Of a stretch of 64,000 nucleotides of DNA, positions 10,978-50,954 are shown piece after piece. Numbering within the stretch: the stretch's first letter is position 1; every line of letters begins with the position of its first letter. The stretch lies in assembly GCA_049999805.1 (NCBI GenBank), contig JBNGIO010006342.1, positions 165,778-229,777 on the forward strand. The letters run 5' to 3'. Below the pieces are notes generated by a model. The model searched no databases and was not told where the DNA came from. It worked only from the letters and a program-made list of their open reading frames with translations. The translations under genes were made by a program, and so were the position numbers. This DNA is from Folioceros fuciformis. Its lineage: Eukaryota.

Positions 10978-12410
10978 ATGAAGTTCGGGAAGCAGCTCAA
11001 GATTCATTTGGAGGAGACGCTGCCGGAGTGGCGGGATAAGTTCGTGGCGTACAAGAAGCTCAAGAAGCGGCTGAAGCTGCTCAAATCCGCGCCTGATTGC
11101 TTTGCGGAGGTGGCTTTCATCCCCGCGGACGAGGCGCTGGACTCGGACGTGGCTAAGGTGGACAGCAGGCTGCGGAACGGGAGCGAGATTGGACACTATG
11201 AGAACGGGCTGCGCTTGCCCGGGGTGCTGGAGTCCAGGGGGAAGAGGCGGCGGATAGACCTGGGGTCCCGGGCCGGGTCGGGCTCCGTCTCCGGCTCCGG
11301 GTCCTTGTCCGGGTCTGCGTGCNNNNNNNNNNNNNNNNNNNNNNNNNNNNNNNNNNNNNNNNNNNNNNNNNNNNNNNNNNNNNNNNNNNNNNNNNNNNNN
11401 NNNNNNNNNNNNNNNNNNNNNNGTGGCGGGGTTGGAGCGGAGTGCGGGTGCGTCCGAGGACCAGATGGAGTTTGTGAGCTTGTTGAACGCGGAGTTGGAC
11501 AAGTTCAACGCCTTCTTTGTTGAGAAGGAGGAGGATTATGTCATCAAGTTGAAGGTAAATCGAGTGCGGTTGCTAGAGTTAGGGTGGTTGTCAATGTGGC
11601 TGGGGCTTCTTGTTTGTGTCGAAGGTGGTTGGCCGTTGGTGTCAGCATGTTTTCTTTGCTGATTTCGTGATGTGGATGGTTCAGGAACTGAAGGAGAGGA
11701 CCAAACGGTTCAGGAAGCAGACGGCGAACCGGACGGAGTTGTCAGAGGAGGAGGTGAAGGAGATGACCACTATCTACACCGATATGATTGCGTTCCATGG
11801 AGAGATGGTGCTGTTGGAGACCTACAGTTCTCTTAACTACACGGGTTTGGTGAAGATTCTCAAAAAACACGATAAGTGGACCGGCGGGGTGTTGCGGATG
11901 CCTTTCATACAGATGGTCTTGCATCAGCCGTTTTTCACTACCGAGCTCTTGTCTCAGCTTGTTAAGGACTGTGAGAGCAATCTGTCATCCTTCTTTCCAC
12001 CGCAGCCTCAGGGGGAGCCTCAGGTTCAGGTCCCTGCACAGGCTGGTGCGGATCAGGGTGTGGAAAGCCCTATGGCGGTTAATACTCCCGACAGTGACTA
12101 TGGGCTGCACGGCGCCAACTCCCCGGCGGTAGAGGATACGGCATCCAAAGGGCCTGTTGATGGACGTGGCGATGGGTGGCTCCCGTTGGGTGATAACCTG
12201 GATGGGGTTTACAGAAGCGCGGTGGCTGCTCTCAAGACTATAAAAGATATACGCAGGGGAAGCTCGACCTACAGCTACTTGTCCATGCCGCCACTTGATC
12301 CCGTGGATGGCGATGACACCTTTGGGGTAGTGATCAACGAGCAGGTACATAGGGAGTCTCCGACACCGTGCAGAACTGTGGCTTCTTCAGTCCCTGTGTC
12401 GCAAGACTAG
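10978..12410 (+). CDS. SPX: SPX-domain-only protein (SPX1-4 class phosphate sensor). Exons 10978-11554 (N gap 11323-11422) and 11685-12410.
   Basis: MKFGKQL..TLPEWRDKFVAYKKLKKRLK; LNAELDKFNAFFVEKEEDYVI; FHGEMVLLETYSSLNYTGLVKILKKHDK..VLHQPFFTTE; IRRGSSTYS. GT-AG intron 11555-11684. Confidence 0.95.
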
Positions 12411-30071: not shown

Positions 30072-30834
30072 CTCCCACGAACCAACTTGCAGATGTGGAT
30101 CGGGTGTGGTTCCATCTCCGACCCCTCATCTGCTTCCATTTCCTTCTCTTTCAAGATTGGACTCCTAGTTGCCCATGTGGCCCGCACAATCGTAGGCAGC
30201 AAAAAGCAACATCCTGATGCGTATAGTACGAAGCGTATTTAGGACGCAGGGAGCCAAGTTCTGACAGCGAATCGCAACTTGCGGTTGAAGCGATCGTGCA
30301 CTGGAACGGAAACAGCATACGGGGTCCCTGAATGGAAGGATGTCCTTTGGAGCAAGGTCTACTATACCAAGTCCCAAGACCAGAGAATATTTATGTGAAG
30401 ATATTCAAAGTCATCCCGTCCTTTTTGTTTTTTTAATAACGGTTGCAAGGGGAAGGATGGAAGGAAGGAATGCAGGCAGGCGGCAGGAAAGAGGGCAAGA
30501 CGAAGCCGGCCGGCAGAAGCCTTGAGTAGGTCAGTCTACTCGTCTTCTCCCTTGACACGGTCTTGACGCAGCTCTGCTCTGGGGTATCAAAGATGGGGCT
30601 CTCCGTCTTATAACACTGCTGGCCAGAGCATTCTGCAGCAGCTGTTCCTATCCTGTCCGCACTTCGACTTTGTGTGTGGAGGTTCGGATCCGAGGACCTG
30701 AGCATTCGGTCCCTTCTCTTTGTACCCTTGATCGTGTCCAGGGTCCTGGTCTGTGGTGAGGGTGTGGGTGGAGGAGGTGTATTGTGCGTGACGGCGGTGG
30801 ATTTTGGGTTCCGGTGAGCCTGCAGGAGAAGACA

Positions 30835-32364
30835 ATGAGTATCTCGGAGAGCACCAGGATGGCGGTGGCCCGGCAACGAGCTGCGGCGAGGGGGCATCGG
30901 GTTTCGTCGAATCCCTTCTCGGATGATGAGGACTCTACCACCTCCGGCTCCTCGCTCACTTCCCGCTCTTCTAATCCGTTTGATGACGAGGTGGCGTCGC
31001 ACAGCCGCGTTTCCGATGCCAGGAGACGGGAGAGGGCCTTGCGCCCGACGCAGGATAAGGTTTTGTCAGGGTCTGTGCTTGGTGCGTCTAACAATCCTTT
31101 CGATGAACCCGAGGTTTCTAAGGGGTCCAGAGGGAGCAGGTCGCAGGAATCTTCCAGGCGGGCTAGGGCGCCCTCTGGAAATCCGTTTGATGATGATGAT
31201 GCTGGGGAGACTAGAGGATCGGGATCTGGAAGTGAGAGGCACGCGAGGTCGAAGCCGGAGTCGCGGCGGGGGTCTGCGGGGAATCCTTTCGACGATGATG
31301 CGCTTGTGGCCAAGGTGAGGAGCAAGCACAACAGTTTGAGTGCTATTGAGACGGGGTCTGGGAATCCGTTTGATGATGAATATCCGGTGCCGATCAAGGC
31401 TAAACATAACAGTTTGAGCGCGTTGGAGAGGGACTCCCTGTTTGCCAGTGAGGAGAAGCCTAGTAAGTCGCAAAGTTCCAGCAGGCGGAACAGTGGGGGG
31501 AGTGAACTGAGTGAGGACTCGGCAACGACGGAGAGGAGGTCCCGAAGGGGAGCGCAGATCAAAGAGAAGGTGGTTTCCATTTACTCTGAAAGTGTGGAGA
31601 AGGTAGCGGCTGTTGGGGAAAGTGTGTCTAATAAGCTGCAGAAGCCGAAGAAGAGTTCCAGTGGTCAGGAGGACCGGCGGCTGGACCGAAATGCGCTTCT
31701 GGATGGTAGTGCTCAGGCTCGCCCCCGTCCTGTTCCTACTCCGGTGCGTTATGGGGAGCAGGGGTTTGAAGGCCAGAGTGTGGAGCAGCTGCGTAGTTAT
31801 GCTCACGAGAAGTCCAGAGAGACAACATCAGCAATCGAAAATTGTTTGAGGGTTGCAGAGAACACGAAAGAAGTTGCCGCCAGCACTATGGCCCAGCTTC
31901 ATGATCAAGGAGAACAGATCCGCCGAACCCATGAGATGGCAGTCAAAGTGGACGAAGAACTCAGCACTGGAGAGAAGCTGCTGGGAAGCTTAGGAGGCAT
32001 GTTTTCCAGGACCTGGAAGCCTAAGAAGAATCATGCTATCCATGGCCCGACGGACGGTCCTACAAGTGACTACAGGCGCAAAAACTATCCGGAGCAGCGT
32101 GCTTCTCTTGTGCAGGGGGATAATGCCGGAAAACTTGCAAGCTCGCAAGCCCTGGAGCCGTGGGAGCAGGAAAAGTTGAGGCAGGATAAGGACCTGGATA
32201 AACTGAGCAACTTGCTTACTGGGTTGAAGGATATGTCAGAACAAATGGGTGCTGAGATCGGCAAGCAGAACAATAGCTTGGAGGGTCTTCAAACTGATGT
32301 TATTGAGTTGCACAACAGGGTGGAGCAATCCAACCGGCGTGGCCTGAAACTTTTGGGAAGATGA
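30835..32364 (+). CDS. SNAP25-type Qbc SNARE (SNAP33/SNAP29-like), intronless, with six NPF motifs in an extended N-terminus
   Basis: FEGQSVEQL..YAHEKSRETT..NCLRVAE..TMAQLHDQGEQIRRTH..GEKLLGSLGGMFSRTWKPKK; second SNARE helix QDKDLDKLSNLLTGLKDM..MGAEIGKQN..SNRRGLKLLGR. Confidence 0.92.
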   Translation: MSISESTRMAVARQRAAARGHRVSSNPFSDDEDSTTSGSSLTSRSSNPFDDEVASHSRVSDARRRERALRPTQDKVLSGSVLGASNNPFDEPEVSKGSRGSRSQESSRRARAPSGNPFDDDDAGETRGSGSGSERHARSKPESRRGSAGNPFDDDALVAKVRSKHNSLSAIETGSGNPFDDEYPVPIKAKHNSLSALERDSLFASEEKPSKSQSSSRRNSGGSELSEDSATTERRSRRGAQIKEKVVSIYSESVEKVAAVGESVSNKLQKPKKSSSGQEDRRLDRNALLDGSAQARPRPVPTPVRYGEQGFEGQSVEQLRSYAHEKSRETTSAIENCLRVAENTKEVAASTMAQLHDQGEQIRRTHEMAVKVDEELSTGEKLLGSLGGMFSRTWKPKKNHAIHGPTDGPTSDYRRKNYPEQRASLVQGDNAGKLASSQALEPWEQEKLRQDKDLDKLSNLLTGLKDMSEQMGAEIGKQNNSLEGLQTDVIELHNRVEQSNRRGLKLLGR

Positions 32365-32999: not shown

Positions 33000-34330
33000 A
33001 AGGTGCGGGATGCGTAATGGCGATTTGCTTATAGAATGTCATATCCATACATGCCTCGCACATCGATTAGGGCACCTCTTCAACTCCACCATGCTATGGC
33101 GGGCACCTCTTCAACTCCATCATGCAGCGGCTATGGCGGGCACCTCTTCAACTCCATCATGCAGCGGCTATGGCGGGCACCTCTTCAACTCCACCATGCA
33201 GTTGCTATGGCGGGCACCTCTTCAACTCCACCATGCAGTTGCTATGGCGGGCACCTCTTCAACTCCACCATGCAGTTGCTATGGCGCTCCATCGGCTTGC
33301 TAGGGGGTTGCTATGGCGCTCCATCGGCTTGCTAGGGGGTTGCTATGGCGCTCCATCGGCTTGCTAGGGGGTTGCTATGGTGCTCCATCGGCTTGCTAGG
33401 GGGTTGCCACCTCATATTGTTGCAAATATGTATGGCGTAGGACGATGGAGCTTGCTAGGGGGTTGCCACCTCATATTGTTGCAAATATGTATGGCGTAGG
33501 AGCTATGGCGTAGGAGCTTTGACTGTGGCTCAATACACCATTATGATTTCAGATTATGATTTTAAAGATATGTAGTTATGAGGAAAAGTTATGGCTCAAT
33601 ACACCATTATGATTTCAGAGATATGGAGTTATGAGGAAAAGTTATTTTCCAAATTGGTTCATTGGCCTACAGGGATGGAACTAGAGCTAACAACTTCAAA
33701 GTTCAAGCAACTCACAGGTCTACCCAATATGGTTGGAGCTCAAGCAACTCACATCTCTACCCAATATGGTTGGAGCTTAAGCAACTCACACGTCTACCCA
33801 ATATGGTTGGAGCTATAGATGGTTCTCACATCAAGCTGACTACACAACCTAATCAGATAGATAACCCAGTTGCATATTAGTGTCGTCATGGTATTCACTT
33901 TGTTGTACTACAAGGCGTATGTGATGCTAACAAAAAATTCATCGATGTATGTTGCACTTATCTTGGTGGAGTTCATGATGCTACAATTCTTAGGGAGAGT
34001 AGCATATGGGAGAAGATGAAGACAGGTGTTATTTTAAGAGACCATATTCTACATATCGAGGATATTGAAATGACTCCATATATCTTAGGTGATAGTGCCT
34101 GCCCATTAATGCCTTTCCTCATGAAGATCGGACTAAAAAATATTTCAATCAGTCCTTAGAAGGGGTAGAGTGAAAGTGGAGAATGCTTTTGCCTTGTTGA
34201 AAAATAAGTGTCGTATTCTAAAGAATCTTAATGTGTGTTTGAAGTATGCTCCATAGGTCGTCATCGCTTGTTCCGCACTTCATAATTTTTGTATACAGGT
34301 TGGAGAGTTAGAAGCACGACAATATGATGA
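33000..34330 (+). mobile_element. Degenerate PIF/Harbinger transposase (DDE_Tnp_4) with internal tandem duplications
   Basis: VAMALHRLARG..VANMYGVG; LPNMVGAIDGSHI; VVLQGVCDANKKFIDV; GGVHDATILRES; YILGDSA; VKVENAFALLKNKCRIL. Confidence 0.85.
33070..33410 (+). repeat. Two abutting tandem arrays: ~6 x 37 bp, then 4 x 32 bp
   Basis: Unit gggcacctcttcaactccaccatgcagttgctatggc (33070-33285). Unit gctccatcggcttgctagggggttgctatggc (33286-33410). Confidence 0.95.
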
Positions 34331-34868
34331 AGACCCATTTCCACTACATGAAACTGAGTGTAATCATACTTGGGAAGCTCTTGCAAAGCGTCGGATGCAC
34401 AACATAGTAGTGATAGAACAAAATAAATTGTTTGAGTATTGGAAAAACAAAGGAACTGGTGATGTTTGAGGTTTAGTAGTAGCAAAGTTGTTTGTGGCAT
34501 ACAAACATGTTTGGAAACTTCGATATATGACTGCTTCAATTTCTATGGAAATTTATTTATTTGAAATTGCTATGAAAATTGTTCCATGAAGCTGAAACAA
34601 CCAAATATGAGAGCACACATAAAATAGATGTACCTACAAGCTACTGCCAGATGCACACATCCTTGACATGGAACGTACCACCAAATTCCACTACCTACCA
34701 ACTAACTTTCCACACCACAAGCACACGTGGAGAACATGCTATATGTTTGAGTGGGAAGAACTATATGTGCTTATGTCTCCTTGTCAAAGCACACTTTCAT
34801 CAGGCCATTGAAACCAAACATGCTACTTTCCTGAAGGGAATCTTCTTGCCAAGATAGTAGCAGCCTTC

Positions 34869-35830
34869 CTACCCTACATGGAGCCTCTTGCCTTCTTGGT
34901 AGGTAAGCAACTTGCCTGCCTTCTTTGATGGGCAAGCAACCTTGCATGGAGCCAACCTGCCTTGTCTGGAGTCTTGTTCACCTGTTGCCCTTCTCCCTTC
35001 CAAGTCTGTCACAAGTCCTAGGAGTTCATTTGTCATCGACATCCTACCTTTCTTGCCACTTCTACTATGTTCACCAAGGCCTCCTTCAGGTAACCCTGCA
35101 AGCATCGCTGTAATTTTCAGTTGGTCTTGCATTTGCAATTCATTTTGGCTGAGCTCATGCTGCAACATCAGTTGTTGCATGTGAAGTTGGTTTGCCATTT
35201 TGGCTGCTTCAATCTTTGCCAGACAATTAGCGAAAGATGATAAGCATTGCAATTTCCTTTCCCACTCCTGAAATAGAAGACCTTCTACACTTGACCTTTT
35301 ACATTGTACATGATCACTCATATTGTCTTGTTCTATAGTTCTTAGCTTACTTGGGGATTATGCATAGTGCTCCTCTATTGTCTCTTCAGCTTCGGAAGTG
35401 ACGTGATAGGGTGCATGTGGTGATTGTTCCAAATCAAATGAGTAAGTTCTACTCTTTGCAGCATCGGAAGGTGAGTTGGCAGTACCTTGTGACATCTTTG
35501 ACTTGCCAGGATCTAAGGCACCTGGAATCCCTTGGAATTTGGGGCTTTTGTCACAAAGGTCTGCCATCACATGGAAGTGAGGCCACGAGGAATTGATGCT
35601 TCCTATTGCTGTTTTTTGCTCCTTCTCCTTTCGGTACCGCTTCTTGAGATTTTCCATTTTCATCTTACACTTTTTTGCAGTCACACCAAGAAGGCCACAG
35701 TTGTTGCTAACTTCAGCAGCCACCTCACTCCAGTGTCTTGTAGTGAGATTACCTTGCTTGAGGTGCACCTAGTGCATCTCATGATAGGCCTCTATCAGAA
35801 CAGTTGTCGTGAAATTGTCAGCGTGCGTCC
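34869..35830 (-). pseudogene. Myb/SANT-like (trihelix, Myb_DNA-bind_4) partner gene of the Harbinger element
   Basis: VLIEAYHE..QGNLTTRHWSEVAAEV..TAKKCKMKMENLKKRYRKEK..SSWPHFHVM, followed by a Gln/Leu coiled coil. Convergent with the transposase, the usual two-gene Harbinger layout. Confidence 0.8.
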
Positions 35831-36086
35831 TGTTCCTATAACTGGTGCACTGATCAGCAGCTCACACACCTTCTATCTGCCTACACACCAAGACTGAGCA
35901 TTCAGCTCACCTTCCTAGCATCCTCAGATGTTGCCCACTGGCTGGCAGTGTCCTCATAGCGTCCTCACAAAAGCAGTGATAATGAAGAAAAATGGATTTA
36001 TCCTAATTCCCCCCCCCAGCTGGGTGCTAGGGAGACCACAACTGCATGAGTTGCGTTCAATGAGCTTACGTGAAGCAACTTACCCT

Positions 36087-36441
36087 TCAGGTAGAAGAGT
36101 GTCCCCACTCTACTTGTCCATTGCATCGAGGGCAGAACCACACATTGTCAGGCACTTCAGTCAGCGGCGGCTGTAAGCAGAATAGATGAAACCCACCATT
36201 ACAGTGATCACACAGCAACATTAGTTCTGGATCATCGATCCTTTGACAAATCTAACAAGGGTAGTCTATTGGGGAAACCCAGTTTGCTGTTATGATCGTT
36301 GGATCCAAGGTGGGCAAGTGATAGGGGGTGCAATTCTTCATGTGATCTATAATTGTGTGCCCGTCTGCCCCCTCCAAGACCAACACGCCGTTGCTTTGGA
36401 CTTCCTTCACTCGTAAAACGTGCCTACCGGTGCTTGGCTCC
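36087..36441 (-). pseudogene. Integrase C-terminus plus PHD finger of the gypsy element
   Basis: EPSTGRHVLRVKEV..LEGADG..DYPC*ICQRIDDPELMLLCDHCNGGFHLFCLQPPLTEVPDNVWFCPRC (C4-H-C3, 36123-36257). In frame with the integrase once copia-2 is removed. Confidence 0.9.
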
Positions 36442-36718
36442 TGTAGGATCACTAGAGAAGCATGGTGGAGGAGAGGAGAAGAGGAGGCAGAGAGGAGAGG
36501 AGAAAAAGAGGTCACATTGAGAGTGTTTGGCAAGGGAGCTCAAGGGGGTATTTATACCCTCTAGAAGAGCTCCCTAAGAAGCTTCACAAGAAGCTCACTG
36601 GAAGCTGCGCAAGAAGCTTCCTACAGATTAGCTTAAGCTAATCTAAACTAATGATACTTAACTAGACACTAATCTTAGACTAAACACATTAGCCTAAGCA
36701 CATTGGGCTTTAATAACC

Positions 36719-39700
36719 CTACAACCTCCCACTTAAAGGCCAATTTACCTGCATAAGAGAGTGGTCTAGCTCATGCCCATGAGTGTCCGAGCTTGTGCGA
36801 ATTGCTCCGTAGAGAGCCCCTTGGTAAGAACATCTGCAGGGTTCTGAGGTGTGAACTTTGACAAGCTGTACCCTCTTGTCTTCCAACACCTCTCGAATGA
36901 AGTGATACTTCACTTCCACATGTTTGGTCTTTGCATGAAACACTGGATTCTTCGCCAACTGGATAGCACTCTGGCTATCACAATGCAACACTGGCAGCTC
37001 ACCCTTGATCCCCAAATCTCCCACTAAACGAGCAAGCCACATGGCTTCCTTGCAAGCCTCAGTCGCTGCAACATACTCGGCCTCTGTGGTAGATAGCGTT
37101 ATGCACGATTGCAAACGAGATCGCCATGAGACTGCCCCTCCAGTGCACATGAAGACATAACCTGATGTGGACCTCCTTTTGTCCATATCCCCTGCATAAT
37201 CAGCATCCGTATATCCTACTACAGATTCATCTCCACTACCAAAACATAAGCACAAAGCTTTTGTACCATTCAAATACCTCATAACTCCTTTCACTGCCTC
37301 CCAATGCTTCCTGCCAGGGTTTGACATGAACCTACTAACCACTCCCACTGCAAAAGCAATGTCAGGACGTGTAGCAATCATTGCATACATCAAACTCCCT
37401 ACAGCTGATGAGTATGGAACCTTCTCCATTTCAGCTTTATCCTCCGCAGAACTTGGGCAATCTTTGCTCGAAAGTTTCACATATGGAGGCAACGGAGTAC
37501 TTAAGACCTTCCCCTTCTCCATATTGAAACCTTGAAGCACCTTGTTAATGTATTCTGTCTGAGACAAGTACATCAAACGCTTCTGTCTGTCTCGACGAAT
37601 ACGCATGCCAAGAATATGGCTTGCCTCCCCCAAGTCTGTCATGTCAAAGCGACCATTCAACTTTGACTGCAACGCTGAAATCTCATCACTGTTAGTCCTA
37701 GCAATTAGCATATCATCCACATAGAGGAGTAGAATGAGCAAGCTTCCATCCTTAGCTTGCTTCGTATAGAGGCAATGATCCATATCGCTACGCTTGTAGC
37801 CTTGAGAAAGCATAAATGAGTGGAACTTGAAATACCACTCCCTGGGTGCCTGCTTCAAACCATAAAGGCTCTTCTTTAACTTGCACACCAGACTCTCTTT
37901 GCCCTTCTCAATGAAACCCTCTGGTTGCTACATGTATACCTCTTCCTGGAGATCACCATGCAGAAATGCCAACTTCACATCCATCTGGACAAGTTCCATG
38001 TCGTTCCTCGCAACCAGACCAAGAACACATCTCAAGGTAGTCATTTTGACAACTGGTGAAAAAATCTCATCAAAGTCAATACCTTGCTGTTGCTTAAAAC
38101 CTTTAGCAACCAATCGTGCCTTGTACTTAGGTTTGCCATAATGGGGTATGTCCTTCATCTTATACACCCATTTGCATGGCAACGCCTTCTTGCCCTTAGG
38201 CAACCGAACCAACTCCCAAGTTTGGTTCTTATGGAGCGAATCCATCTGCGACTGCATCGCCTTCTCCCACTTGTTTTTGTCAATCACTGACTTGGCCTCT
38301 TGGTAACAAGAGGGCTCCCCACAATCCGTCAGCATGACATAATCAAGAGATGCAACATTCCTGTCAGGAGGACGTGAGATCCTTCCTGACCTACGAAGCA
38401 CTGGCGCCTCGACCGGAGCTGGTTGCACTCTCTCCTCGTCTACAAGTGGAGGAACTTGTTCCTGCACATCACGATGTTCAGCCTGCGCGGGACGGTCAAG
38501 TCCATCTTCTTGGAAGACCACCCGTCGCACCTCCATAGTTGGAGTAGGCTTCTTGTGCATCTTGGTCTCATTGAAGAACACATCATTGCTGCGAACCATC
38601 CTCTTGGCTTCTGGATCCCATAGACGGTATCCCATCTCACCAGATTCACCATAGCCAAGAAAAATACATTTTCTTGACTTAGGAGCCAACTTGTCGCGAA
38701 ACTCCTTCGGAACATGGTAGTATGCCTCGCAGCCAAACACTCGTAGATGTTTGTATGACGGCTTCTTTCCATACCACATCTCCTCTGGAACCTGTTCATC
38801 CACAGCCCTATTAGGAGATCTGTTAATAAGATGCACTGACGTAACCACCGCTTCTGCCCAAAATCCGTTAGGCAATCCAGAGTTTGACAACAAACTACGC
38901 ATCCTCTCCTGGATGGTCCTGTTCATCCGCTCAGCCACACCATTCTGGGGAGGAGTATACGGTGCAGTCAATTCTCTCTTGATTCCCTTGGAATCACAGA
39001 ATGACTGGAAAGCCTTCGAAACATACTCTCCCCCATTGTCTGTCCTTAGACACTTCAGCCGGAGGCCAAACTGATTCTCCACAAGGGTGACGAATTTCTG
39101 AAACACTGTCAGAACATCATCCTTTTTCCTCAAAGGATAAACCCACACCTTGCGTGAGAAGTCATCAATGAAAGTGACAAAATAAGATGCACCGCCTAAC
39201 GACACAGTGGGCATAGGTCCACAAATGTCACTGTGAACCAATTCAAGAGGTTTACTTTTGTGTTTACCTCTTGCTCCATGTGGTGACTTCGTCTATTTTC
39301 CATACAAACAGTGCTCACACACGGAGAAATCGGAGAAGTCAAGAGCAGGGACGTAACCAAAACGAGATAAGATCTTCATTCCTTTCTGAGACATATGTCC
39401 TAACTGACTATGCCACAAGGAAACACTTGGCACTTCCGCTACATGATCCTTGACAGTGGTTACCTGAAGTGAGTACAAAGTGCCACACTTCGATCCACGA
39501 GCTATCACAAGAGAACCTTTGGAGATCTTCCAAGAACGATCTCCAAACCAACAGTGGTAGCCAGCGTCATCCAACTGCCCTGCGCTAATCATGCTTTTGG
39601 TCAACTTCGGAACATGCCTGACATCCTTTAGTGTGAATGAAGATCCGTTGTCGAACTTCAGCTGCACATCACCAACGCCTGCTATCTCGCACGCGTAGTT

Positions 39701-40702
39701 ATTTCCAAGCCGAACACATCCTTTCCTAGTAGCATCATAAGTGCTAAACCACTCCCTATGCGGAGTAACATGGAAAGATGCTCCAGAGTCAATTATCCAA
39801 TTAGAGAATAAGTGACTCTCCATGGCTGTCAGTTGTGCAGAACCAAAAGAAGAAGAGATAAGAACATCTTCATCGTCAACAGAGTTCACCTCATCACACT
39901 CGATACTGGAATCTGCCTTGTTGTCGCTCTGCTTCTTCTCCTTGCCTTTTTCCTTCATGAACTTCTCGCAGTCCCTTCTGATATGACCCTTCTTGTGACA
40001 ATGGTAACACTCAACATTGTTACGACTACGAGATTTGCTACAGGAAGAACTTCGCTCCTTGTACTTCCCCTTTGAAGTGGACCCTCCTCTCACCATGAGG
40101 GCATTAGAACCTTTCGAAGGTTCCATATTCTTCCTGTTCACCTCCTCTGTTAACAGGCTACCTTCTACATTTACAACAGTAAGACCACTGGCAGGAACGG
40201 AATTACTCAGAGCCGTACGGAAGGTGTCCCAACTCTCTGGTAATGTGACCAACAAAAACATAGCTCTCACGGAATCTGGGAACGAGATACCTTGAGATGA
40301 GAGCTGGCTGAAATTGGTATTGAACTCATTCAGATGATCGGACATCCTCGTCCCTTCCTTCATCTTTAAGTCCACCAGCTGTTTCAACCAATACACCTGA
40401 GAAGCCGCACTTTGCTTCTCATACAAGTCACACAGCTTCTGCCATAGCTCGAAACTTGTGGTCTTGTCTTTCACGTTGAAGTAGACCGACTTCGACACTG
40501 TTAGCATGATGGTAGACCTAGCAAGCTCATCTAGATCTTGCCACTCATCCTGAGTCATGCTAACAGGTTTCACTCCTAGCAGCTTGATGGGCTTGATCTG
40601 CTTCTTCTGTACTAGAACATTATACACTTGTTCTTTCCAGAACGGGAAGTTAGTACCATCTAACTTCTCGATATTGAACATGACGTTTTCTGAGGACGTC
40701 AT
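36719..40702 (-). pseudogene. copia-2 gag-pol, nearly intact (two in-frame stops and a terminal frameshift)
   Basis: [95 protein letters not shown]. Confidence 0.95.
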
Positions 40703-40989
40703 GCTTCAAATTCGATCCAAATCAACCAAAAGGCTAGTTTGAAATTGGTCGAAATGAAATGTAGATTCTACAGGTTACCCTCACAACTTCTTCCGAATCG
40801 TATGTCCACGACTTGGGCCTCTGTCGCTCATAACAGGAATGTCCTTCTACGTTTGATCGAGATCCTGACTTCCTCAGCCGGGGTCAATACGGCACCCACA
40901 CTCTCGCTCCCGGCGTCTGCGATTTGTTCACTTTCCGGCGCTCGTCAATCGGGTCCTCGCTTCACTGGCACGCTCGTTTCGAGCGTCAC

Positions 40990-41340
40990 GGGCGCCCACG
41001 TGGTGCCCGGTGGCGCCTAGGTGGCGTCCACGTGGCGCCCAAGTGGTGCCCAAGTGCGCCTGCGTGGCGTCCTGATGGCACCCAGTGGCGCCCACGTGGT
41101 GCCCAAGTCGCGCCTAGGTGGCGCCCGTGTGGTGCCCAAGTCGCGCCTGGGTGGCACCAAGGTGGCGTCCAAGTGGCGCCTAGGTGGCGCCGATGTGGCG
41201 CCCGCGTGGTGCCCAAGCGGCGCTGATGTAGCGCCCGCTGGCGTCCACATGGCGTTGATGTGGCGCCCGGTGGCGCCCAAGTGGCTCTCACATAGCGCCT
41301 AGGTGGCGCCTGCATGGCGCCCCTGCCCCTCCTAGATGGC
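40990..41340. repeat. GC-rich degenerate array of ~11-bp GGTGGCGCC-type units in the copia-2 5' leader
   Basis: Repeated (g)gtggcgcc/gtggtgcc/gtggcgtc units between the PBS and the gag ATG. Confidence 0.8.
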
Positions 41341-41663
41341 CATCTTCATGGTCTTGCTCCACAACGTGCTCTGATACCACTTGTAGGATCACTAGAGGAG
41401 CATGGTGGAGGAGAGGAGAAGAGGAGGCAGAGAGGAGAGGAGAAAAAGAGGTCACATTGAGAGTGTTTGGCAAGGGAGCTCAAGGGGATATTTATACCCT
41501 CTAGAAGAGCTCCCTAGGAAGCTTCACAAGAAGCTCACAGGAAGCTGCGTAAGAAGCTTCCTACAGATTAGCTTAAGCTAATCTAAACTAATGATACTTA
41601 ACTAGACACTAATCTTAGACTAAACACATTAGCCTAAGCACATTGGGCTTTAATAACCCTACA

Positions 41664-42440
41664 GCTCCAGTGTATCCTGCGTTTGGCGCTGCAAATACAC
41701 ATAGTTGCCAAACTAGAATTTACGCACCTTAGGTCGGAAGCTGCCACTTCGTGTGTAAGCATATCTAAGATCTCACGGTGTTGCGTGATCTACAAGTTGG
41801 CCATGGCCATAGGCTCCTAGGACCCTTTTGAATAGTGTTGCCCGTTCTCCTATGGCCCTTGCCCACGTTGCTAGATTGTCCAGGTCCGGGACTTCCTGCA
41901 TCTGCTTCTTAATGGCTGCGGGAGGTACTGGTCCTATCCAAATAGCAAAAAGTAAGGCGAAAAGTTTGCCAAAGCTGCATGACGGCTCATCCGATATCCC
42001 ATGGCGATGTAGGGCAGCTGCATGTCCCACTCCGTCTTGGGCTTAGCGAGGCATAGTTTTTGCAGAGCTTGCTTGATGGTCTGGACCATTCTCTCCGTGA
42101 GTCCATCCGCTTGTGGGTGGTCCCGGCTGGTGCGCCTGTGATCTATCAAGGCAGCATCCAGCAAATCCTGGAATTCTCCTCTAAATTCCGCTCCTTGGTT
42201 CGTCAAACATTCGGCATTGCTTCCAAACCTGCTGAGTATGTTGTGTAGAAACGCCTGTGACGTACTACGGAATGTCTTGTCTGGGAGAGCTGCCAGTTCC
42301 AGCCACTTGGAGAAATGCTCCACCATCACCATGATGTACACATTTCCCCTGGGTGTTCAAGGAAACTCTCCTGCCAAGTCATACGACCACCGGAAGAACA
42401 AACCCATAATGGGCAGTGGATGCAACTATGAGTGTGGGTT
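41664..42440 (-). pseudogene. Gypsy integrase catalytic core
   Basis: LHPLPIMGLFFRWSYDLAGEFP*TPRGNVYIMVMVEHFSKWLEL..CLTNQGAEFRGEF..HPQADGLTERMVQTIK..FSPYFLLFG. Confidence 0.92.
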
Positions 42441-42444
42441 GCTG

Positions 42445-43440
42445 GATGTAGGTTTGATAGTAGTTGCATAGCCCCAAAAACGCCCTGAGCGCTGACACAC
42501 CAGCAGGGACAGGGATCTGCTATATGGCCTGAACCTTCGCAGCATCTGGCATGATGCCATTTAGTAAGATCCTGTGTCCCAAGTAAGCCACTGTATCCAT
42601 GGCAAACTCACACTTGGCGGGATGACAAGTTAACGAAGCCTTTCGCAACCTCCTAAACAAGTCCTCCAGGTGTAGCAGGTGAGTCTCAAAATCAGTGCTG
42701 TGAACCAACACATCATCTATGTAACAAAGAAAATGTGGTGCCCCAGCCAGTACCTTGTCCATCACCCTCTGGAACATAACTGGCGCATTTTTAAACCCGA
42801 ATGGCATAACCAACCACTCCTATAATTGATGCGCTCNNNNNNNNNNNNNNNNNNNNNNNNNNNNNNNNNNNNNNNNNNNNNNNNNNNNNNNNNNNNNNNN
42901 NNNNNNNNNNNNNNNNNNNNNNNNNNNNNNNNNNNNAGGCAGTCTTATGTATGTCTTCTTCCGCCACTGGTACCTGATTGAATCCCTGCTGTAGATCCAG
43001 TGTGGAAAAGAAGATTGACTAACCTATCCGATTAAACATCTCTTCACAAGTAGGCATGGGATACCTGTCAGTGGTGGTCACAGCGGTCAAGGGCCGGTAG
43101 TCTCTGCACATACGCTTCGCCATCTAGAGCCCTTGACTGTCCTTCTTGGGTGGGAGCAACGTGGCAGCTGCAAAATCCAAGTTTGAAGGGCGGATAAGCC
43201 CTGCCTTGTATAGTTCCTGACAACGCGTCTCCACAATGTCCCACTCAGACTAGCTCAGCCGATATCTCCTTCTGAAAACCGGCTCTGGGGTATTCAGCTT
43301 GATCTTGAAGGTCATTAAATTACACCTCTTCAACTCTTGCATGCTGAATGCGAAGCAGTCAGCATACTGCAGGATCAACGCCTTCAATCGACGTCGTTGT
43401 CCTTCATCCAACTGAGGACCCATCGTCCAAATGAAATTCC
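42445..43440 (-). pseudogene. Gypsy reverse transcriptase (100-N gap at 42837-42936)
   Basis: PVFRRRYRLS..GLIRPS..KKD..RMCRDYRPL..DRYPMP..STLDLQQGFNQV..KTA|EWLVMPFGFKNAP..YIDDVLVHS..KCEF..YLGH..RAFLGLCNYY. Confidence 0.93.
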
Positions 43441-43649
43441 CTGCATTAAAGGTGGCTTAGGTGGGCCTCCAGCATCCGGGCCAGGATCCCGCTTGGAAGC
43501 AGCAAGTGCAGACCTGACAAGTGCGTGCTCCCCCCCCCCCCTGCTTCCAGCAGATAGGAGTAGTAGTTGAAACCTGGGAACGGAAGGTGCACAATATCTG
43601 GGTGACACATATGAGCCACCAAACCTCCCTTGTGACGGGCAAAGGCTTG

Positions 43650-44610
43650 GAAAGCCAAACACAAATTGACCAACTACGTAAGGGCATAAACATCCATGGC
43701 CCGTCCGAGTGCAGCGAATTGCTGCATGCGGGACGCCTTGGGTGCGGCCGTGGATTGCTGTGGAAAACCCATGATGCGCTCACACTCCTTGACTGTAGGT
43801 TCTTCCCACTGGTTGGTGTCGGAGTTCAGTAGCAACCCTGTCCCTTAAGCGCTGTAAGCATAGCTACCCGGGTAAGTCACCAAGGTAGGGAGGGTGCGTC
43901 GTGGCTCACCAGGCTTGTTGGTGGGAAACCATGGTGCACGCTCTGTAGCTTTAATACGCCGCGGTAAGTGATTGGTGTTGAGCACTGTTGCGAGGTCCAA
44001 AGTAGCATCACGCTGCTGCTGACTCAATGCCATGTGAAGCATAGACACAGGGCATAGATTGGTCTAGTAATTCCGTAGTCAGTGAGCAAAGCTGCCCACT
44101 TGTACTGCGTCCATAGTAAAGGCTGGACCAACAACATGTTGTATCAAAGCCATATCCTATTGAAGCTGGGTTCTGGGATCCAGATGAGCGGGAGTGTTCT
44201 CTAACATGTATGCCATTGATGGATTGACCTCCTGTGACCATGCCAGGATTTGTGCTAAGGCTCGGAAGAGTCCTGATCTAGGATCTGAGAGTCCTGCTCC
44301 ACGACCTGCCCGTGAGAGACCCTAACACTCCTTGCCAGCAACGATAAGATCTATAGGTCCCAAGTGCTGCACATGGCTATGTTGAACATAGGTGAGGTTC
44401 TGTGGCAGAGCCTGAAACATGCTTTGACAAGCATGTAAACTAAGTTGCTCTGGGTACATGTCATGTAACATACGTACCCGATGCTCCGCCATATGCCTGA
44501 CTGTCGGGCAGATGTCACAGTAAATGTATCACTGCACCTATAGCCCACATCGCAGTGCCACTTCAAGTCCTGTGCAAAGTCCTCCAAAGAGCTCCATGAG
44601 TGTAATACCC
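43650..44610 (-). pseudogene. DNMT3-like C5 cytosine DNA methyltransferase domain inside the gypsy pol
   Basis: One reading frame with 8 stops. I: ITLMELFGGLCTGL. II: YIYCDIC. IV: GPIDLIVAGKEC*GLS (Cys codon 44325-44327). V: GLSDPRSGLF. VI: YMLENT (44193-44201). VIII: DAVQVGSFAH*LRNY*TNL. IX: ECERIMGFP. X: ALGRAMDV. Confidence 0.88.
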
Positions 44611-47600
44611 GCTGTGGGTGGGGTATTACAAGATACAATCGCAGTGTTGATAGTTGACATACACGGTGGTGGTATCCTGGTCAATAGGGCCTTGCCCATA
44701 AATGACTCCTGCAAGGTTTTCATGACATGAGCCATCTACTCCTGTGCCTGTTGCACAGCTCTTTGTCTCGATACCCCTGTCTGAGTGACATCAACCGTAA
44801 GAATGGAACTGTGAACGGAGTTATCGTGATAAACTTCAACCTCCTACAAATGTTGCTGTAGTAGGAACTCTTCCAGACTGTCACATTCCTGCAACCATTC
44901 ATCTCCTTTGTCGTCAAGGGCTAGTTCTAGCTCCTGCGTAGGTTTCTAATCCACCAGAGCAGCCATACATGCCTGTGTTTCCACAATGGACACCTCTGTA
45001 GCCTGCATAACTCCATGCAGATCAAGAGGGATGTGGGCAATGCGTTGGCCACTCTAACGCCAGTCTGGGCGATAAGTAGCTTGCTCTACCCAATTGTCAA
45101 TCGGGACACCAGGTGGGAACAGAAACTCTTGCCCCAGCAAGATGTCGTAGTTAGTTGCCGTGGTCACTACACAACGCAATGGCAACATCATCTCATCATC
45201 AATGCCTGCCTTCAAGGTAATTCGCACATGTTGCACTGTTTCCCCGCACACAGGCTCCACAGCACCGAAGGCCATCTATATGTTCCACGGAGATGGCTTC
45301 AGGGCTTCTCCTGTCTGTCTCAACTTAGCTGCCAAGATCTTGCCCACGATCACTGGTTGACCTCCAGCATCAAGCAAGACAGCCCTGGAAGCCAAGTTGT
45401 TGACAAGTACGTGTTTGTTCCTGTTGTCCACCAAGACATTGCTGACTCTAGCGCGTGCACGGTTCGTGGGTTGCACAACAAGCAATCCCTGCACCTCTTG
45501 TGCCAACTGAGCAGCCTGTACCACCTCTCCTCGTGCCAGGACATCTACCCACGTATCGCAAGAACGCTCCAGCCCCCCCAGATTGCTGGTCATGGCTTCT
45601 GCGCACCCACTGGGTAGGCTAGGTTCCACAATCACTTGAGGGTCTTCAGACAACAACATGGCTTGGAGTTGAGCTTCGCTGTACCCAAGTTCAGCTAGAC
45701 TAAAGAGTGGTGTTGACGTCATCCGAGCCATAAGGTCCTTGCTCGTGAACTCGGGGACACCTGGGTGCAAATGACGCAACCTTGATGCGCCTCTCATTCC
45801 TGCAATTGGACACTTTTGCCTAGTTCCATCTTCCAACACATCCTCATCTGGCAAATGATCAGCGCCCCTCACCAGCATTGCTACTTCCGGTGGTAGCTGC
45901 TGGAAGGACTGAGGTATGACCGCTCTAGCTCCACGCAGATGTGTTGACACAATTGCGGGACTTGGTACCTGGCCTACCCATGATTGTGGTAAACTCATAG
46001 TCTTCGTCCCTCCTTGGTGCTGCCCTTCAACACCCATTTTTCCAGATGCACCACCTGATCTATCAGCAATGCATGCCTCCCAGGCCCAACCATAGTCCTC
46101 TCCGTTAGGATCCAAGGTTCCACCTGGTTCCAACTCCGCGGTATTGACAGGCTTTGTGACAGCTAAACTGGCAACAATGGCACTTACTTGGGTAGTGAGA
46201 GTGGCCATCACCGTCTCCAAAGCACTCATCTTATCTGCCTGAGCCGTTGACTTCAGCTTGACCTTGTCACATTGAGCTTTACTCTTGGTGATCGATGAAG
46301 TTCCCAACTCAGCAAATGTATCTGAGCTCCCTTCTCCTGAAGTAGTGGGCGTGCTGGTTGCAGTCCTTTACTGACGCTGCTCTGGATGCTTTTGAAAGCA
46401 CACTGCTACCACATGACCGGTCTTGTGACAATGTGAACATTGTAGAGACTCCACTGGACACCTACATGCCGATGCTAGGTGCTCTGCACTGGTGCACCTA
46501 TTGCACAACGGGCCCATTGTAGCTGCTGCAGTTGTGGTTGGCTTGGTCTTGCTGCTGTCCTCAGAGTTTCTCCCTGTGCCATGGCTTCCCCCAGTTCCAC
46601 TTGAGCTTGAACCTCCCTTGTTTGAGAACATACTCTGATAATGGTTGAAAGCCTTGGTATGTTGGGATGCATACGCCGAGAATGCCAACTCCTTCTTCTC
46701 TGCCTCTTGATAGACTTGATGCAAGGTATAGTTGTCTTTGTACTTGTTCACAAGGGTGGTGAATAACTGGTAATGGAACATCAGGTCTCTCTCCATCATT
46801 GCTAAGAACTTCTGAGCCGCCTCTTGGTCCGTTAGCATTCCTGTTCCGTCCCACAATTTCTGCAACCTTCTAAATGCCATCTGAACAGTTTCACCCTTCT
46901 TGCGCGCAAAGGCTGCAAGCTCAGCTATTTTCTTTAGCGTCTTGGTAGGGAAAGCCTTTTCCAGTATACTGAAGAAATCCATCTCTATTGGTGTCATGTT
47001 CACCACTGTAGGTGGTGGCACACTGGTGGCAATAGTGCCTGCAGCAATGCCTGTCTGGTGTGCCGATACTACTGCAAACAGCAGAGCATTGTAGGCCACT
47101 TGCAAAGCTGCTGTATACGCCGGGTTAGGTTTCTCCCTCATCGCTAGTATCTCTGGAGCATGAATTTCAAACAAGTCCAAGCCTCATCTGTTAAATACCC
47201 AGGCATCAATTCGAACATATACCGATGTGTATAAGCCGTGCCATGCTTGAACTTAGCTCGGCTGATGAGGTATCCATAGAACAGCCTAAAGTCACGCAAT
47301 GTCTGAGTTCCTAGCCTTCCCGAGAACTTCTTGGACTTGTGTACTGAGGAACTTGAACCCTCCATGATGATAGACTCCTCAGCTTCCTCTTTTGAGCTGG
47401 AAACTCCCCCTACAGCTTGAATTATGGTAGTCAAAGGTGACCAACCTACTCCTGCTCCGCTTGGAAATGTGACAGGATAACTACCCACTCCTTGGACTCA
47501 AGCTCCAGAGTTCTGATTCTCTGTCGGTTCAAGTTGACCTTCAACTGGTTCCTCCCTTGAAGCAGGACGTTCGCCTACCCGAGGTTGACGTACTCTTCTC

Positions 47601-49454
47601 CTAAAAGCCCAAGGTCTCCTGGGTACTATCCTGTTCCTTAAGCGGTAAACTCGCTCCTCATCATCCTCATCAGAGCGCATAACCCATGCAACAACAAGAA
47701 CAAGTGTCAGCAGCAAGTTGGCCAAAGACTGCCTCAAGATCACCTCACACTTACAGCGATGCTTCAACCCATTGGATCCTACGCCTGAACAGCTTGTCCA
47801 AGAGTGTACCCTAGACACACGTATTGTTTCAAGCACAAGTCTTCACATCATGATCAACGACACCTATCAGCTGTTTGTATCAACTGATGTTCCTATCCTG
47901 AGACCCTAGCAATCAGCCAAGGTGCAAACTCAGTTGTGAGAAGTAAATTCAATGAAAGTTGGAAGGGTCCCGCAGATGGCACACAACACACATGTCATGC
48001 GAGTCACCCTGAGTCACACTCAGCGATTGGGTAGTGCAAAAATATCAGCTGAAGTAAGTTATCCCCCTTTTGATCATCCCGACAAGCAGCCCCTCCAGCG
48101 GTCTCAAACACATTCGTGCATTGATTCTCAGAGTGAGACCCCGACACAGAACTTCCAGAAACTCGGTTCGCGCTGACATTAATTGTTCAGCTCCTAAGAG
48201 CACAACGGGTCGTGACACCGAATACTTGCATACAAGTTCCCATCATCCCCGTCAGGAGAACCCCTACGGCGCTAGCTTGCCAATCTACTCAACAGGAAAA
48301 GACTTCTCACAACTGAGGTTTCTCCTCGACTGCTCTGCACTTATCTGCTTCGTCGCCTAGGATAGGTTGATCTTGCTCTTTGTCAAAAAATTGCAACATT
48401 GTGTATATTTCCACCCCCTACATTATCAGAAAGGGAACTATCCTCATGGTCAGGAGTTTGAGCTACATGAGGAAATGGTTCAGATGATGAGTGTAGAGGT
48501 GTTTCATAGAGCTCATTCAACTCCTTGATGACAATGGGAGTTGCTCCCATTGCTTTGAGAGGATCTAATACTCCAGGAAAAAAAAAATCTCTATTGAAGA
48601 TGATTTTCTTGGTAGCAAGGTGATATAACCTATACCCCTTTACCTCATTGGAGTACCAAAGCATGATGCATTGGATGCCTTTAGGATCCCACTTGGTTTG
48701 GTTTTGCTTTGGAACATGAGCATTAACCATACAACCAAAAATCCTAAAATGACTTACATTAGGTTTGATACCAGACCACGCCTCCTCCGGAGTTATTCCA
48801 AGCATGTACCTAGTTGGAACTCTATTCAAAATGTAAGTTGTTGTAATAATGGCCTTTCCCCAAAAAGGTACTTTCAACTCACTTTGATAGAGCATGCATT
48901 TTGCCGCATTCACTAGGCTTCTTAGCTTGCGCTCTGCTACTCTATTTTGCTCTGACATGTGAGGAATTGTGAGTTTTCTTTGAATGCCACACTCCTTGCA
49001 AAGCTTTTGAATTGAGAAGAGATGTACTCCCCTCCATCGTCACTTCTCAAAGTTTTCAAGCATTCTCCACTCTCGTTTTCCACCAAGACTTCCTGTATCT
49101 TGAATGTGTTAAACACCTTGGATTTCTCCTTCAAGAGATACATCTAACTCTTCCTTGTGAAGTCATCCACCAAGACTAGAATGTAGCACGATCCACCATG
49201 GGTAGGATTCTTCATTAGTCCACATACATTAGCATGTACTAGCTCCAGCTTCATCGTTGCTTAACAAGCTCCGATCTTGGGGAACTTTGTTCGATGAAGC
49301 TTTCCCATTATGCACCCTTGGCATAATTGCACCTCTCCTTCCTCCTCCAATTCCAAGCCTTTCACCATTTGATAACTCTTCATCAACTTGATGTTGTGCA
49401 CTTTGGTGTGTCCCAAGTGTTGATGCCATAAATCAATTGACCTTGTGCTTTAAG

Positions 49455-49710
49455 GTGAGCTTGACACAATTGTGTAAGCTTCTTCAGCGAGCTTGATAGA
49501 ATTGTGTAAGCTTCTTTAGCGAGCTTGATAGAATTGTGTAAGCTTCTTCAGCGAGCTTGATAGCATTGTGTAAGCTTCTTCAGCGAGCTTGATAGCATTG
49601 TGTAAGCTTCTTCCGCGAGCTTGATAGAATTGTGTAAGGTTTCTCGACGAGCTTGATAGAATTGTGTAAGCTTCTTTGGCGAGCTTGATAAAATTATATA
49701 AGCTTCTTCA
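49455..49710. repeat. ~8 x 32-bp tandem array inside copia-3 pol
   Basis: Unit gcgagcttgatagaattgtgtaagcttcttca with minor variants. Confidence 0.9.
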
Positions 49711-50954
49711 TCCCATATAGAAGCACACAACTTGTAGAGATTGCCTTCCCGAACACCTCGAGTTATCACCTTGACAGAAGGTGCTTCAAGATGCTTGGGT
49801 GGGATGTGACATGCTTTTAAATTGAAGACAATCTCATTTCCTCGGTTAGTGATTCTTGTTACTGAAAGAAGATTTTTCACAAGACTAGGTACATGGTGTA
49901 CATCCTTAATAGTACCTTTGGATACTCCTCCAAGTAGCTTAACTTTATCACACCTTTCTCTTTGATCTTGTGTGACTTATTGTCACCAAGTGGCATTTTT
50001 TTGTAGTTTGAGATCCAGGGTTGGTTGTAGGTGAAGTGTTGAGATGCTCCAGGGTCTAGGTATAGACTCTCATCCTTCCCTGATGAGCGATCTCACACTT
50101 TCTTTATCATTGAAGCAGTAAAACGATATTCTTCTTGCTCATTCACTTGATTGGCTTGTGACTATTTTCCTTTCTTCAAGTCAGCCAATCTTGTCCTCCA
50201 GTCTTTTGCATAGTGGTTAGATTTCGTATAATAATGGCAAGTACCCATGTCTTTTTCTTTGTAACTTTCTCCTTTGATCCTTCACCGGAGTTGTCTCGTG
50301 GGGTCTTCCCTTGTGACTTTCCCTTCCTTGAAAAGAGTACCTAGTCACCATTGTGTTCATTCTTGATTGAAATCTCGAGCTCCTCTTGTAGAAACAACCG
50401 AACCTCCTCTTCCATCATTGCTTGTTTATCGCTTGGACGCATCGATGCAGGTGTCCTAAAAGCCAACACAAACTACTTGTACATAGATGGTAAGCTACTC
50501 AACAACACCTCAATAGTCCTTCCTTCGAAAGGTTTAATGTCTGCATTCTTAATTTGATCAACCAAGTTCTTCAACTTGTTCAAATGTTGTTGAATCGTGT
50601 CCCCTTCAACCATCTTGAAGTTGGGAAGTTGTTGCTCCAACAACATCTCACTCACCATACTTCTTTTTTCGTACATGTTGCAAGGGTGGGTCCATGCCTT
50701 CTTCGATGTTGGACACTCACTCAATTGAGAGAGTATGTCATTAGACATGTTGAGAAGGATTGTAGCTAATGCTTGTCCATCCTTATCAAGGTCTCCTTAG
50801 ATGGGTGTGTCTTTAAGGCCCTTGTCAACGAATTTCCATACTCCTCTTTCGATGAGAAGCATCTTCATGTTCAACTTTCTTTCACAATGTGAAGTTCTTG
50901 CCTCCAAATTTCTCCACCAAGCATGTCTTAAGAAGATGTGTCTCCATGCTTGTT

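Follow-up and report, generated by a model that had tools for sequence, protein, structure and literature searches.

The closest described relative of the element reported here is KnitGypsy-Dnmt3 of Klebsormidium nitens, in which a Dnmt3 methyltransferase lies inside the Pol open reading frame (ORF) of a gypsy element with DIRS-like repeats and a Ka/Ks of <0.2, according to de Mendoza et al. 2018 (PMC5890265). In a 2026 preprint (bioRxiv 10.64898/2026.05.21.726589), “streptophytes (Gypsy-DNMT3)” are still listed as the known case, and elements that combine a methyltransferase writer with a chromodomain are presented as new. The locus analyzed here lies on the minus strand of a 64,000-nucleotide stretch of the Folioceros fuciformis assembly GCA_049999805.1 (contig JBNGIO010006342.1, positions 165,778 to 229,777; hereafter the window, with positions counted from its first nucleotide). 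It holds a decayed gypsy-type retroelement that carries both a DNMT3-type C5 cytosine methyltransferase (MTase) and a PHD finger.

Writers and readers of chromatin are described, separately or together, in several other retroelements. SymbioDIRS-Dnmt3 (PMC5890265) and the “EpiLTRs” (10.64898/2026.05.21.726589) are likewise retroelements with DNA methyltransferases, and EpiLTRs add a chromodomain reader. They differ from the window's element in being DIRS elements or in having a DNMT of another clade (sister to DNMT4), as well as in the reader, and they are treated by the preprint's authors as independent acquisitions. Gypsy-7a_cRei of Chlamydomonas reinhardtii, compared here by description only, shares a gypsy polyprotein with a PHD finger; its intergenic insertions are 2.6 times over expectation, and targeted insertion is suspected by its authors (PMC9940879). 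It differs in that no methyltransferase is reported for it and a figure legend has the PHD before the integrase (INT). Chromoviruses, as generally described, share a histone mark reader fused to the integrase C terminus that is thought to steer integration, but their reader is a chromodomain for H3K9me rather than a PHD finger, and a methyltransferase is not part of their description.

The window's element shares with KnitGypsy-Dnmt3 a gypsy-type organization in which the polyprotein includes an unrearranged DNMT3-type domain, and both hosts are streptophytes. The K. nitens protein KFL_013780020 has the order CCHC knuckle, protease (PR), MTase, ends six residues past the MTase match, and has an MTase 35.8% identical to that of the window. 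In contrast, the DIRS-like repeats reported for K. nitens have no counterpart in the window, where no repeats were found for the element; motif IV of the MTase reads P-C-Q in K. nitens and E-C followed by a stop in the window; and purifying selection acts on the K. nitens copies, whereas the window copy is dead. Furthermore, “PHD” does not occur in the main text of PMC5890265, although Fig. 4c or the supplements may show one. In the window a DNMT domain lies inside the gag-pol frame of a gypsy-type element, and its domain order is shared by the named relatives, which come from K. nitens and Closterium; this places it in the published “Gypsy-DNMT3” kind.

The locus is best read, with a probability of about 0.85, as a decayed Ty3/gypsy copy of the Gypsy-DNMT3 kind without long terminal repeats (LTRs), whose intact form has two frames and whose MTase and PHD finger would serve as writer and reader. 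In the intact form, frame 1 encodes Gag-PR-MTase, and frame 2 encodes reverse transcriptase (RT), RNase H (RH), and integrase (IN) with a C-terminal PHD finger. Between approximately 47900 and 36100, the minus strand of the window encodes, in this order, Gag, PR, MTase, RT, the IN core, the IN C-terminal stretch, and the PHD finger, interrupted by a second retroelement (Table 1). Gag, PR, and MTase occupy a single frame of 3.5 kb (47183-43647) with 14 stops and no frameshift. The succession PR, RT, IN is that of Ty3/gypsy elements; RH is deleted here and is present at that place in the collinear relatives, which match PF00078 plus PF17917/PF17919. Anatomy, family membership, the existence of multiple host copies, and the decay of this copy are all shown here.

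A preliminary description of the window had named these domains in this order on the minus strand, and all of them were recovered by Pfam and PDB matches and by alignment with relatives. It had also placed the knuckles, protease, and MTase in one frame, as found above, and had taken the MTase for a part of the polyprotein rather than a neighboring host gene, which agrees with that frame, with diverged copies that extend over its junctions, and with the collinear relatives. The PF00145 and PF00628 searches that it proposed both gave scores over the cut-offs (30.4 and 49.4 bits). Its assignment of the PHD finger to the same element holds because the integrase reads contiguously across a nested copia element with a 5-bp target duplication, and its claim that the RT is collinear over a gap of 100 N agrees with contigs that bridge the gap and bring both RT halves into one frame. 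The Klebsormidium precedent, which it had named, was correct and is the closest named kind of relative. Its functional ideas, methylation of the element's own cDNA and integration steered by the PHD finger, stay hypotheses.

With stops read as X, the MTase (372 amino acids [aa], 43650-44765) matched PF00145 at E = 3.6e-7 (cut-off, 22 bits). None of the four separate MTase ORF fragments matched in Pfam, and the stops had to be read as X for the domain to be seen; nine stops lie in the 372-aa stretch, eight of them within 43647-44735. The best solved relatives in PDB are the catalytic domains of DNMT3A, 3C, and 3B, with DNMT3A best (E = 5.3e-7). Motifs I, IV, VI, VIII, IX, and X are collinear, in DNMT3 order and not in the rearranged DRM order. 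A profile of 24 relatives matched DNMT3A at 2.3e-24 over most of its catalytic domain, plant DRM at 6e-15 to 2.7e-11, and M.HhaI at 7.9e-8, and it found no DNMT1 at E ≤ 1e-3; the DNMT3 assignment is one of motif order and profile scores. In the alignment of the 24 relatives, conservation of the catalytic Cys column is 90% or higher, and no variation occurs at the positions taken to be the ENV glutamate and the RxR arginine. Pfam reported neither a PWWP nor an ADD domain with the MTase.

The PHD finger matched PF00628 at 49.4 bits (cut-off, 24; E = 4.8e-13), and every Cys and His of its C4HC3 pattern is readable in the translation, with one stop between the first two Cys. Its best solved matches in PDB are Lid/KDM5 PHD1, WSTF, BAZ2B, CHD4, KDM5D, MLL3/KMT2D, and ATXR5, followed by KDM5B, UHRF1, KDM5A, ORC1b, BAZ2A, PHF21A, and AIRE. 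The best matches belong to the group of PHD fingers of the KDM5 PHD1, BAZ2A/B, CHD4, AIRE, and BHC80 type, which have the unmodified H3 N-terminal tail (K4me0 or R2), not H3K4me3, as their ligand and lack an aromatic cage.

In an alignment with nine relatives, the protease has D-A-G (45377-45360) versus D-T/S-G of the relatives and keeps the YD(I/L)LLG motif. The RT matched PF00078 with 76.2 bits in its part below the N gap, whereas the part above the gap, with 20.9 bits, stays short of the cut-off. Relatives whose domains follow the same order have an RT 42 to 46% identical to that of the window; the integrase is 48 to 51% identical to those of P0093, P0003, and the metagenome contig L001. 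The gap is spanned by contigs of runs X1 and X2, both from one sample, in which 6 letters replace the 100 or 8 replace 102. The shorter contig side past the gap is 32 letters in one and 30 in the other, and only the contig with 32 letters satisfies the bridging rule. When bridged, 24 bases (8 codons) separate the last codon above the gap from the first below it, both RT halves are in frame, and the spacing from the K-x-A to the x-PFG motif equals that of L001. Runs X1 and X2 may be the assembly's own source, so the bridging is not independent support for the join.

The MTase belongs to the polyprotein and to the element family and is neither a neighboring host gene nor a one-off chimera. In run X1, 184 contigs matched 41664-47900 with at least 80% likeness (49 at ≥99%, 24 at 95 to 99%, 45 at 90 to 95%, and 66 at <90%), and all 30 depth bins over this interval were covered. 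The PR-MTase junction (44678-45117) is crossed by diverged contigs with 83 differences in 440 positions, and the MTase-RT junction (43187-43943) is likewise crossed. Diverged contigs cover the entire MTase together with both junctions, and several DNMT-bearing copies therefore exist in the host. One diverged copy lacks 1021 nt (43917-44937, most of the MTase): a contig with a depth of approximately 10 to 11 joins 43916 to 44938 in both X1 and X2. A run presumed to be RNA yielded five contigs, all <90% alike and confined to short RT and Gag stretches, and is uninformative on expression. In run X3, C>T or G>A accounts for 451 of 622 differing places over 41664-47900, versus 388 of 937 in X1; X3 resembles a library made from the same sample after bisulfite or enzymatic conversion, and the methylation state of the element could be read from it.

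Relatives are numerous. When 1.84 billion cluster representatives (clusters at 50% identity) were searched exhaustively with HMMER, 1408 matched at E ≤ 1e-3, of which 559 reached 1e-10 and 190 reached 1e-30, and many of the matched relatives are 1000 to 3400 aa long with an internal MTase. Six domains were placed by custom profiles in 150 listed matches; PR and knuckle detection and 25 proteins were added later, the latter being cluster members and word search matches, some of them identical to others. Among the 150 listed matches RT-RH-MTase-IN-PHD was the most frequent order (34 complete rows and many partial), and in five rows the MTase preceded the RT. Of 159 rows with an MTase of at least 250 aa, 94 have this first layout, 26 have the second (MTase before RT), and 39 are undecided. 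Named hosts are Scenedesmus sp. and Haematococcus lacustris for the first layout and K. nitens and Closterium for the second. One protein of Cymbomonas tetramitiformis has the order PR-MTase-INz-INc; it carries the second-layout label but falls inside the first-layout group in the MTase tree. Word index protein searches returned 9 longer and 37 similar-length matches, with K. nitens the only named organism, and bear weakly on distribution; a related-locus pattern search with P0007 gave 26 pattern matches, none of which was confirmed.

The chlorophyte elements of the first layout (the “pol” of Scenedesmus sp. PABB004 and proteins of H. lacustris) share with the window's element an MTase of 35 to 40%, an integrase of approximately 50%, and a PHD finger of 42 to 48% identity. 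They differ in that their MTase lies between RNase H and integrase, whereas that of the window lies between PR and RT, and in that they form a separate RT clade. Chlorophyte gypsy relatives P0003, P0008, P0016, P0020, P0034, and others have this MTase position and a C-terminal PHD finger. On the side of the second layout, Closterium proteins are collinear with the window, and so is L001 throughout (identities of 32% for the MTase, 36 to 39% for the RT, 48% for the integrase, and 45% for the PHD region). In L001 the last part of an MTase ORF is followed by a single in-frame TAG and then by an intact 1194-aa ORF with RT, RNase H, IN-H2C2, rve, and PHD. This TAG (L001 848-850), the single stop that separates the MTase ORF from the RT-RH-IN-PHD ORF, suggests stop readthrough rather than frameshifting.

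An RT tree (IQ-TREE), which had been proposed as a check on the element, placed the window with its same-layout relatives: the window and six second-layout rows are split from 26 first-layout rows with support of 100/99, and the window is nested within five of the six (99/92), with L001 outermost. This tree has 33 rows, with every second first-layout row and duplicates left out, and its bootstrap had not fully settled. The MTase tree (FastTree, 160 rows) put the window, on a long branch, on the second-layout side of a split with a support of 96.

The window copy itself is dead and inert. Its in-frame stops number 21 (16 TAG, 3 TGA, and 2 TAA): the Gag-PR-MTase frame has 14, the RT 4, the integrase 2, and the PHD finger 1. 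Several of them interrupt positions at which conservation among the relatives is 90% or higher. The stop at 43845-43847 has a different letter in contigs of other copies and is therefore private to the window copy. Approximately 335 to 390 aa of the relatives, comprising RNase H and the integrase H2C2 zinc domain (P0093 residues 1623-1957; L001 ORF2 residues 437-827), are without counterpart, and the flanking residues map to adjacent bases at approximately 42426. In addition, one integrase catalytic position differs between the window and L001. The observed/expected CpG ratio is 0.47 in the element, 0.59 in the nested copia, and 0.77 in a host ORF, and that of TpG in the element is 1.49, a skew consistent with transition-dominated decay as in methylated repeats. 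The preliminary description was accurate on the anatomy and overstated what it had found: the kind has been known since 2018, and this copy is a fossil with its stops, its RH/IN zinc deletion, and no LTRs. The deletion, the missing LTRs, and the full count of stops had not been reported there.

The retroelement that interrupts the integrase tail is a Ty1/copia element younger than the gypsy copy. Its LTRs (36442-36723 and 41382-41663) are 282 nt long and 98% identical, its ends are TG...CA, and it is flanked by a 5-bp target duplication, GCTCC, at 36437-36441 and 41664-41668; copia Gag, Pol_BBD, rve, SH3, and RVT_2 make up its domain set. Such an insertion implies that both sides of the gypsy integrase were once contiguous, and two adjacent residues of L001 ORF2, 1081 and 1082, align at 41662 and at 36434, on either side of the copia. 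The copia polyprotein is divided among three ORFs (470, 454, and 402 aa), and a GC-rich stretch with an 11-nt periodicity lies at 40988-41342.

Several observations weigh against the reading of the locus as a Gypsy-DNMT3 copy with writer and reader. Pfam gave no zf-CCHC match on the Gag knuckles and no match on the protease stretch, and the integrase core, with 32.3 bits, is just short of the PF00665 threshold of 32.6. No pair of gypsy LTRs or terminal repeats, direct or inverted, was found in the 64-kb window by repeat search, self-blastn, or sensitive flank-to-flank blastn, so that the ends and the class of the copy are given by its protein domains alone; in place of the flanking LTRs of a Ty3/gypsy element, the flanks hold other transposons (a copia fragment at 48383-50092 and Harbinger-like genes at 33881-35768). 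The other copies in the host are seen in short contigs of one sample, perhaps the source of the window's own assembly. The full-length relatives P0162 and P0168, with the order CCHC-PR-MTase-RT-RH-IN, have no PHD finger. That the window's PHD finger would read the unmodified H3 tail is suggested by the best-scoring solved PHD fingers and their functions. Finally, motif IV of the MTase (44339-44313) has the catalytic Cys, with Glu before it where Pro is canonical, and the K. nitens domain gave no de novo methylation in yeast in its only published bench test (PMC5890265).

These last two points also favor the alternative that carries the most weight, unlikely as it is, namely, that the MTase-like domain of this lineage is not a DNA methyltransferase and acts as a nucleic acid- or chromatin-binding module or in RNA methylation, with a gain from binding and not from 5-methylcytosine. 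Glu replaces Pro in motif IV in 84 of 159 relatives (E-C-Q), but P-C-Q is kept by 41 of 159, including the K. nitens protein and L001. The yeast result was called inconclusive by its authors because human DNMT3B failed there too (PMC5890265). The conservation of the catalytic Cys column, the invariance of the presumed ENV glutamate and RxR arginine columns, and the extent of the profile match over the DNMT3A catalytic domain also argue against this alternative.

The distribution of PHD fingers raises a second and less probable alternative, by which the IN-PHD 3′ part was acquired by recombination with a lineage of the chlorophyte type (RT-RH-MTase-IN-PHD) and was not ancestral to the streptophyte-type lineage. 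Among proteins with tails of at least 240 aa past the integrase core, a PHD finger is found in 55 of 59 of the first layout and in neither of two of the second, which are full length and have the window's MTase position; a further ten of the first layout and three of the second were not long enough to be scored. Furthermore, the window's MTase is slightly nearer the chlorophyte type (38.6% identity to P0003) than the same-layout proteins (30 to 36%). L001 and the window are two second-layout cases with a PHD finger, however, and since L001 is the outermost second-layout row of the RT tree, a single ancestral PHD finger followed by losses would be the simpler history. The nearest rows to the window's integrase core by path are also of the second layout, on a branch without support.

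A one-off chimera or assembly artifact, in which a host DNMT3 gene or pseudogene lies beside or is spliced into a gypsy element, with perhaps a misjoin at the gap, would fit the degenerate state of the copy, the 100-N gap in the RT, the lack of delimiting LTRs, and the differing frames of MTase and RT, but it is very improbable and largely refuted, as Gag-PR and MTase form one 3.5-kb frame with no frameshift, diverged copies in the organism cross both of its junctions, contigs bridge the gap with the RT then in frame, the same order recurs in L001, P0162, P0168, the Closterium proteins, and the K. nitens protein, and the prospect that related gypsy copies would all lack the MTase was not borne out.

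For the Gypsy-DNMT3 kind with a PHD finger, the following mechanism is proposed; its catalytic activity, substrate, and histone mark are inferred. In intact members, the DNMT3-type domain would be translated with Gag-PR as a part of the polyprotein. The second ORF would be reached by stop readthrough in L001; in the window the two frames differ. The MTase may methylate the cDNA of the element or its new insertion, as proposed by de Mendoza et al. for DNMT-bearing retroelements (PMC5890265). The PHD finger borne by the integrase may anchor the intasome at nucleosomes whose H3 tails carry no modification (H3K4me0), so that insertions would avoid active promoters, in parallel to the chromodomain of chromoviruses. 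The ADD domain of DNMT3A is a zinc finger reader of the unmodified H3 tail, and the pairing of writer and reader in the element would copy the logic of a host DNMT3 with its ADD domain. The analogy draws on DNMT3A, 3B, and 3C as the best solved relatives of the MTase and on the combination of a DNMT3 catalytic domain with a zinc finger reader; the window's reader is a canonical PHD finger past the integrase, and the likeness would be one of working and not of membership.

Table 1. Parts of the gypsy element and of the copia element nested in it (window positions)
Feature	Position	Strand	Basis
Gag with two CCHC knuckles, ending at an in-frame stop	46368..47183	-	ORF, knuckle pattern, weak tblastn to Gag of P0174 and P0163
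Zinc knuckles CX2CX4HX4C	46505-46464 and 46439-46398	-	pattern match
Retropepsin-like protease	45054..45500	-	tblastn to PR of P0093/P0162, P0171, P0172, P0176, and P0163; alignment of nine relatives
DNMT3-type C5 cytosine methyltransferase, in the Gag-PR frame	43647..44735	-	PF00145, PDB, family profile
Reverse transcriptase, in a frame other than that of the MTase, with the N gap	42427..43456	-	PF00078; RT of relatives
Gap of 100 N within the RT	42837-42936		
YIDD of the RT, intact	42723-42712	-	
Deletion point of RNase H and the integrase H2C2 zinc domain	42424..42428	-	flanking residues of P0093 and L001
Integrase catalytic core and start of the C-terminal region, up to the copia insertion site	41664..42425	-	PF00665 on the core (42425-41919)
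Nested Ty1/copia element, not part of the gypsy	36442..41663	-	LTR pair, target duplication, copia domains
Integrase C-terminal (SH3-like) stretch, continuing from 41664 without the copia	36258..36441	-	alignment with L001, P0003, and P0009
PHD finger (C4HC3), end of the integrase, with an in-frame stop at 36254	36123..36257	-	PF00628; PDB
Upstream leader or Gag N terminus, repeated in the organism	47184..47900	-	diverged contigs fill all bins to 47900

The surroundings of the element are rich in other transposons. A Myb/SANT-like ORF (35358-35768, minus strand) was considered as part of the gypsy element, being on the same strand and in the same frame as the PHD finger, which lies 340 nt upstream of this ORF, and was rejected; it is read as part of a separate transposon because a Harbinger-type DDE_Tnp_4 gene (33881-34469, plus strand) adjoins it. 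Tandem arrays with 37-nt and 32-nt units (33055-33434) lie just past this Harbinger-like pair. The copia fragment at 48383-50092 is on the minus strand and includes a 32-nt tandem array (49393-49774), and a copia remnant on the plus strand (1469-6092) has a segment, 5813-6092, that is 87% like the LTR of the nested copia.

Two ORFs are likely host genes. The first (30760-32364) is an uninterrupted ORF for a SNAP33-like SNARE protein of 534 aa with repeated NPF motifs. Its best named matches are to the liverworts Calypogeia, Riccia, and Marchantia (37 to 38% identity over 75 to 81% of the length), followed by Ginkgo, ferns, and Amborella (34 to 37% over 74 to 80%); many angiosperms match in the SNARE part only (44 to 50% over approximately 37%). 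The best match overall has 61% identity, and no alga is among the 120 matches listed in this word-limited search. The second (11583-12410), of 275 aa, includes the last part of an SPX domain. The window gave no Rfam match, and a protein cluster atlas returned only generic SNARE and gypsy clusters, with Streptophyta as the phylum. The host is a streptophyte, and on the SNARE matches a land plant is plausible, with roughly even odds.

A full-text literature search, which left figures and supplements outside its scope, found no description of a gypsy element that combines a DNMT with a PHD finger, of the RH-MTase-IN layout in chlorophytes, or of a DNMT-bearing gypsy in a land plant; Klebsormidium was the only streptophyte with a DNMT-bearing gypsy in the literature searched. 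What appears to go beyond the searched print is the PHD finger on such an element and how broad the clade is, with 190 clusters at E ≤ 1e-30. A wider history is conceivable and is offered tentatively, as it is more doubtful than the identity of the locus: an ancient green-lineage clade of gypsy elements may have had a DNMT3-type writer and a PHD reader of unmodified H3 from the start, the MTase having moved within pol between the chlorophyte and streptophyte branches and the streptophyte branch having reached, or persisted into, land plants. If so, this ancient clade would be a retroelement version of the host DNMT3-ADD module.

Transposons with chromatin tools of their own show how a parasite handles host silencing. 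The kind is widespread, with Klebsormidium, Closterium, Scenedesmus, Haematococcus, and Cymbomonas as named hosts, usually with an integrase PHD finger and in two layouts. The value of the window copy is that of a pointer to this family and, if the host is an embryophyte, of the first land plant record. If the pairing of writer and reader works, these elements would provide a natural system in which to ask whether self-methylation benefits a retroelement and whether integration is steered by reading of H3K4me0.

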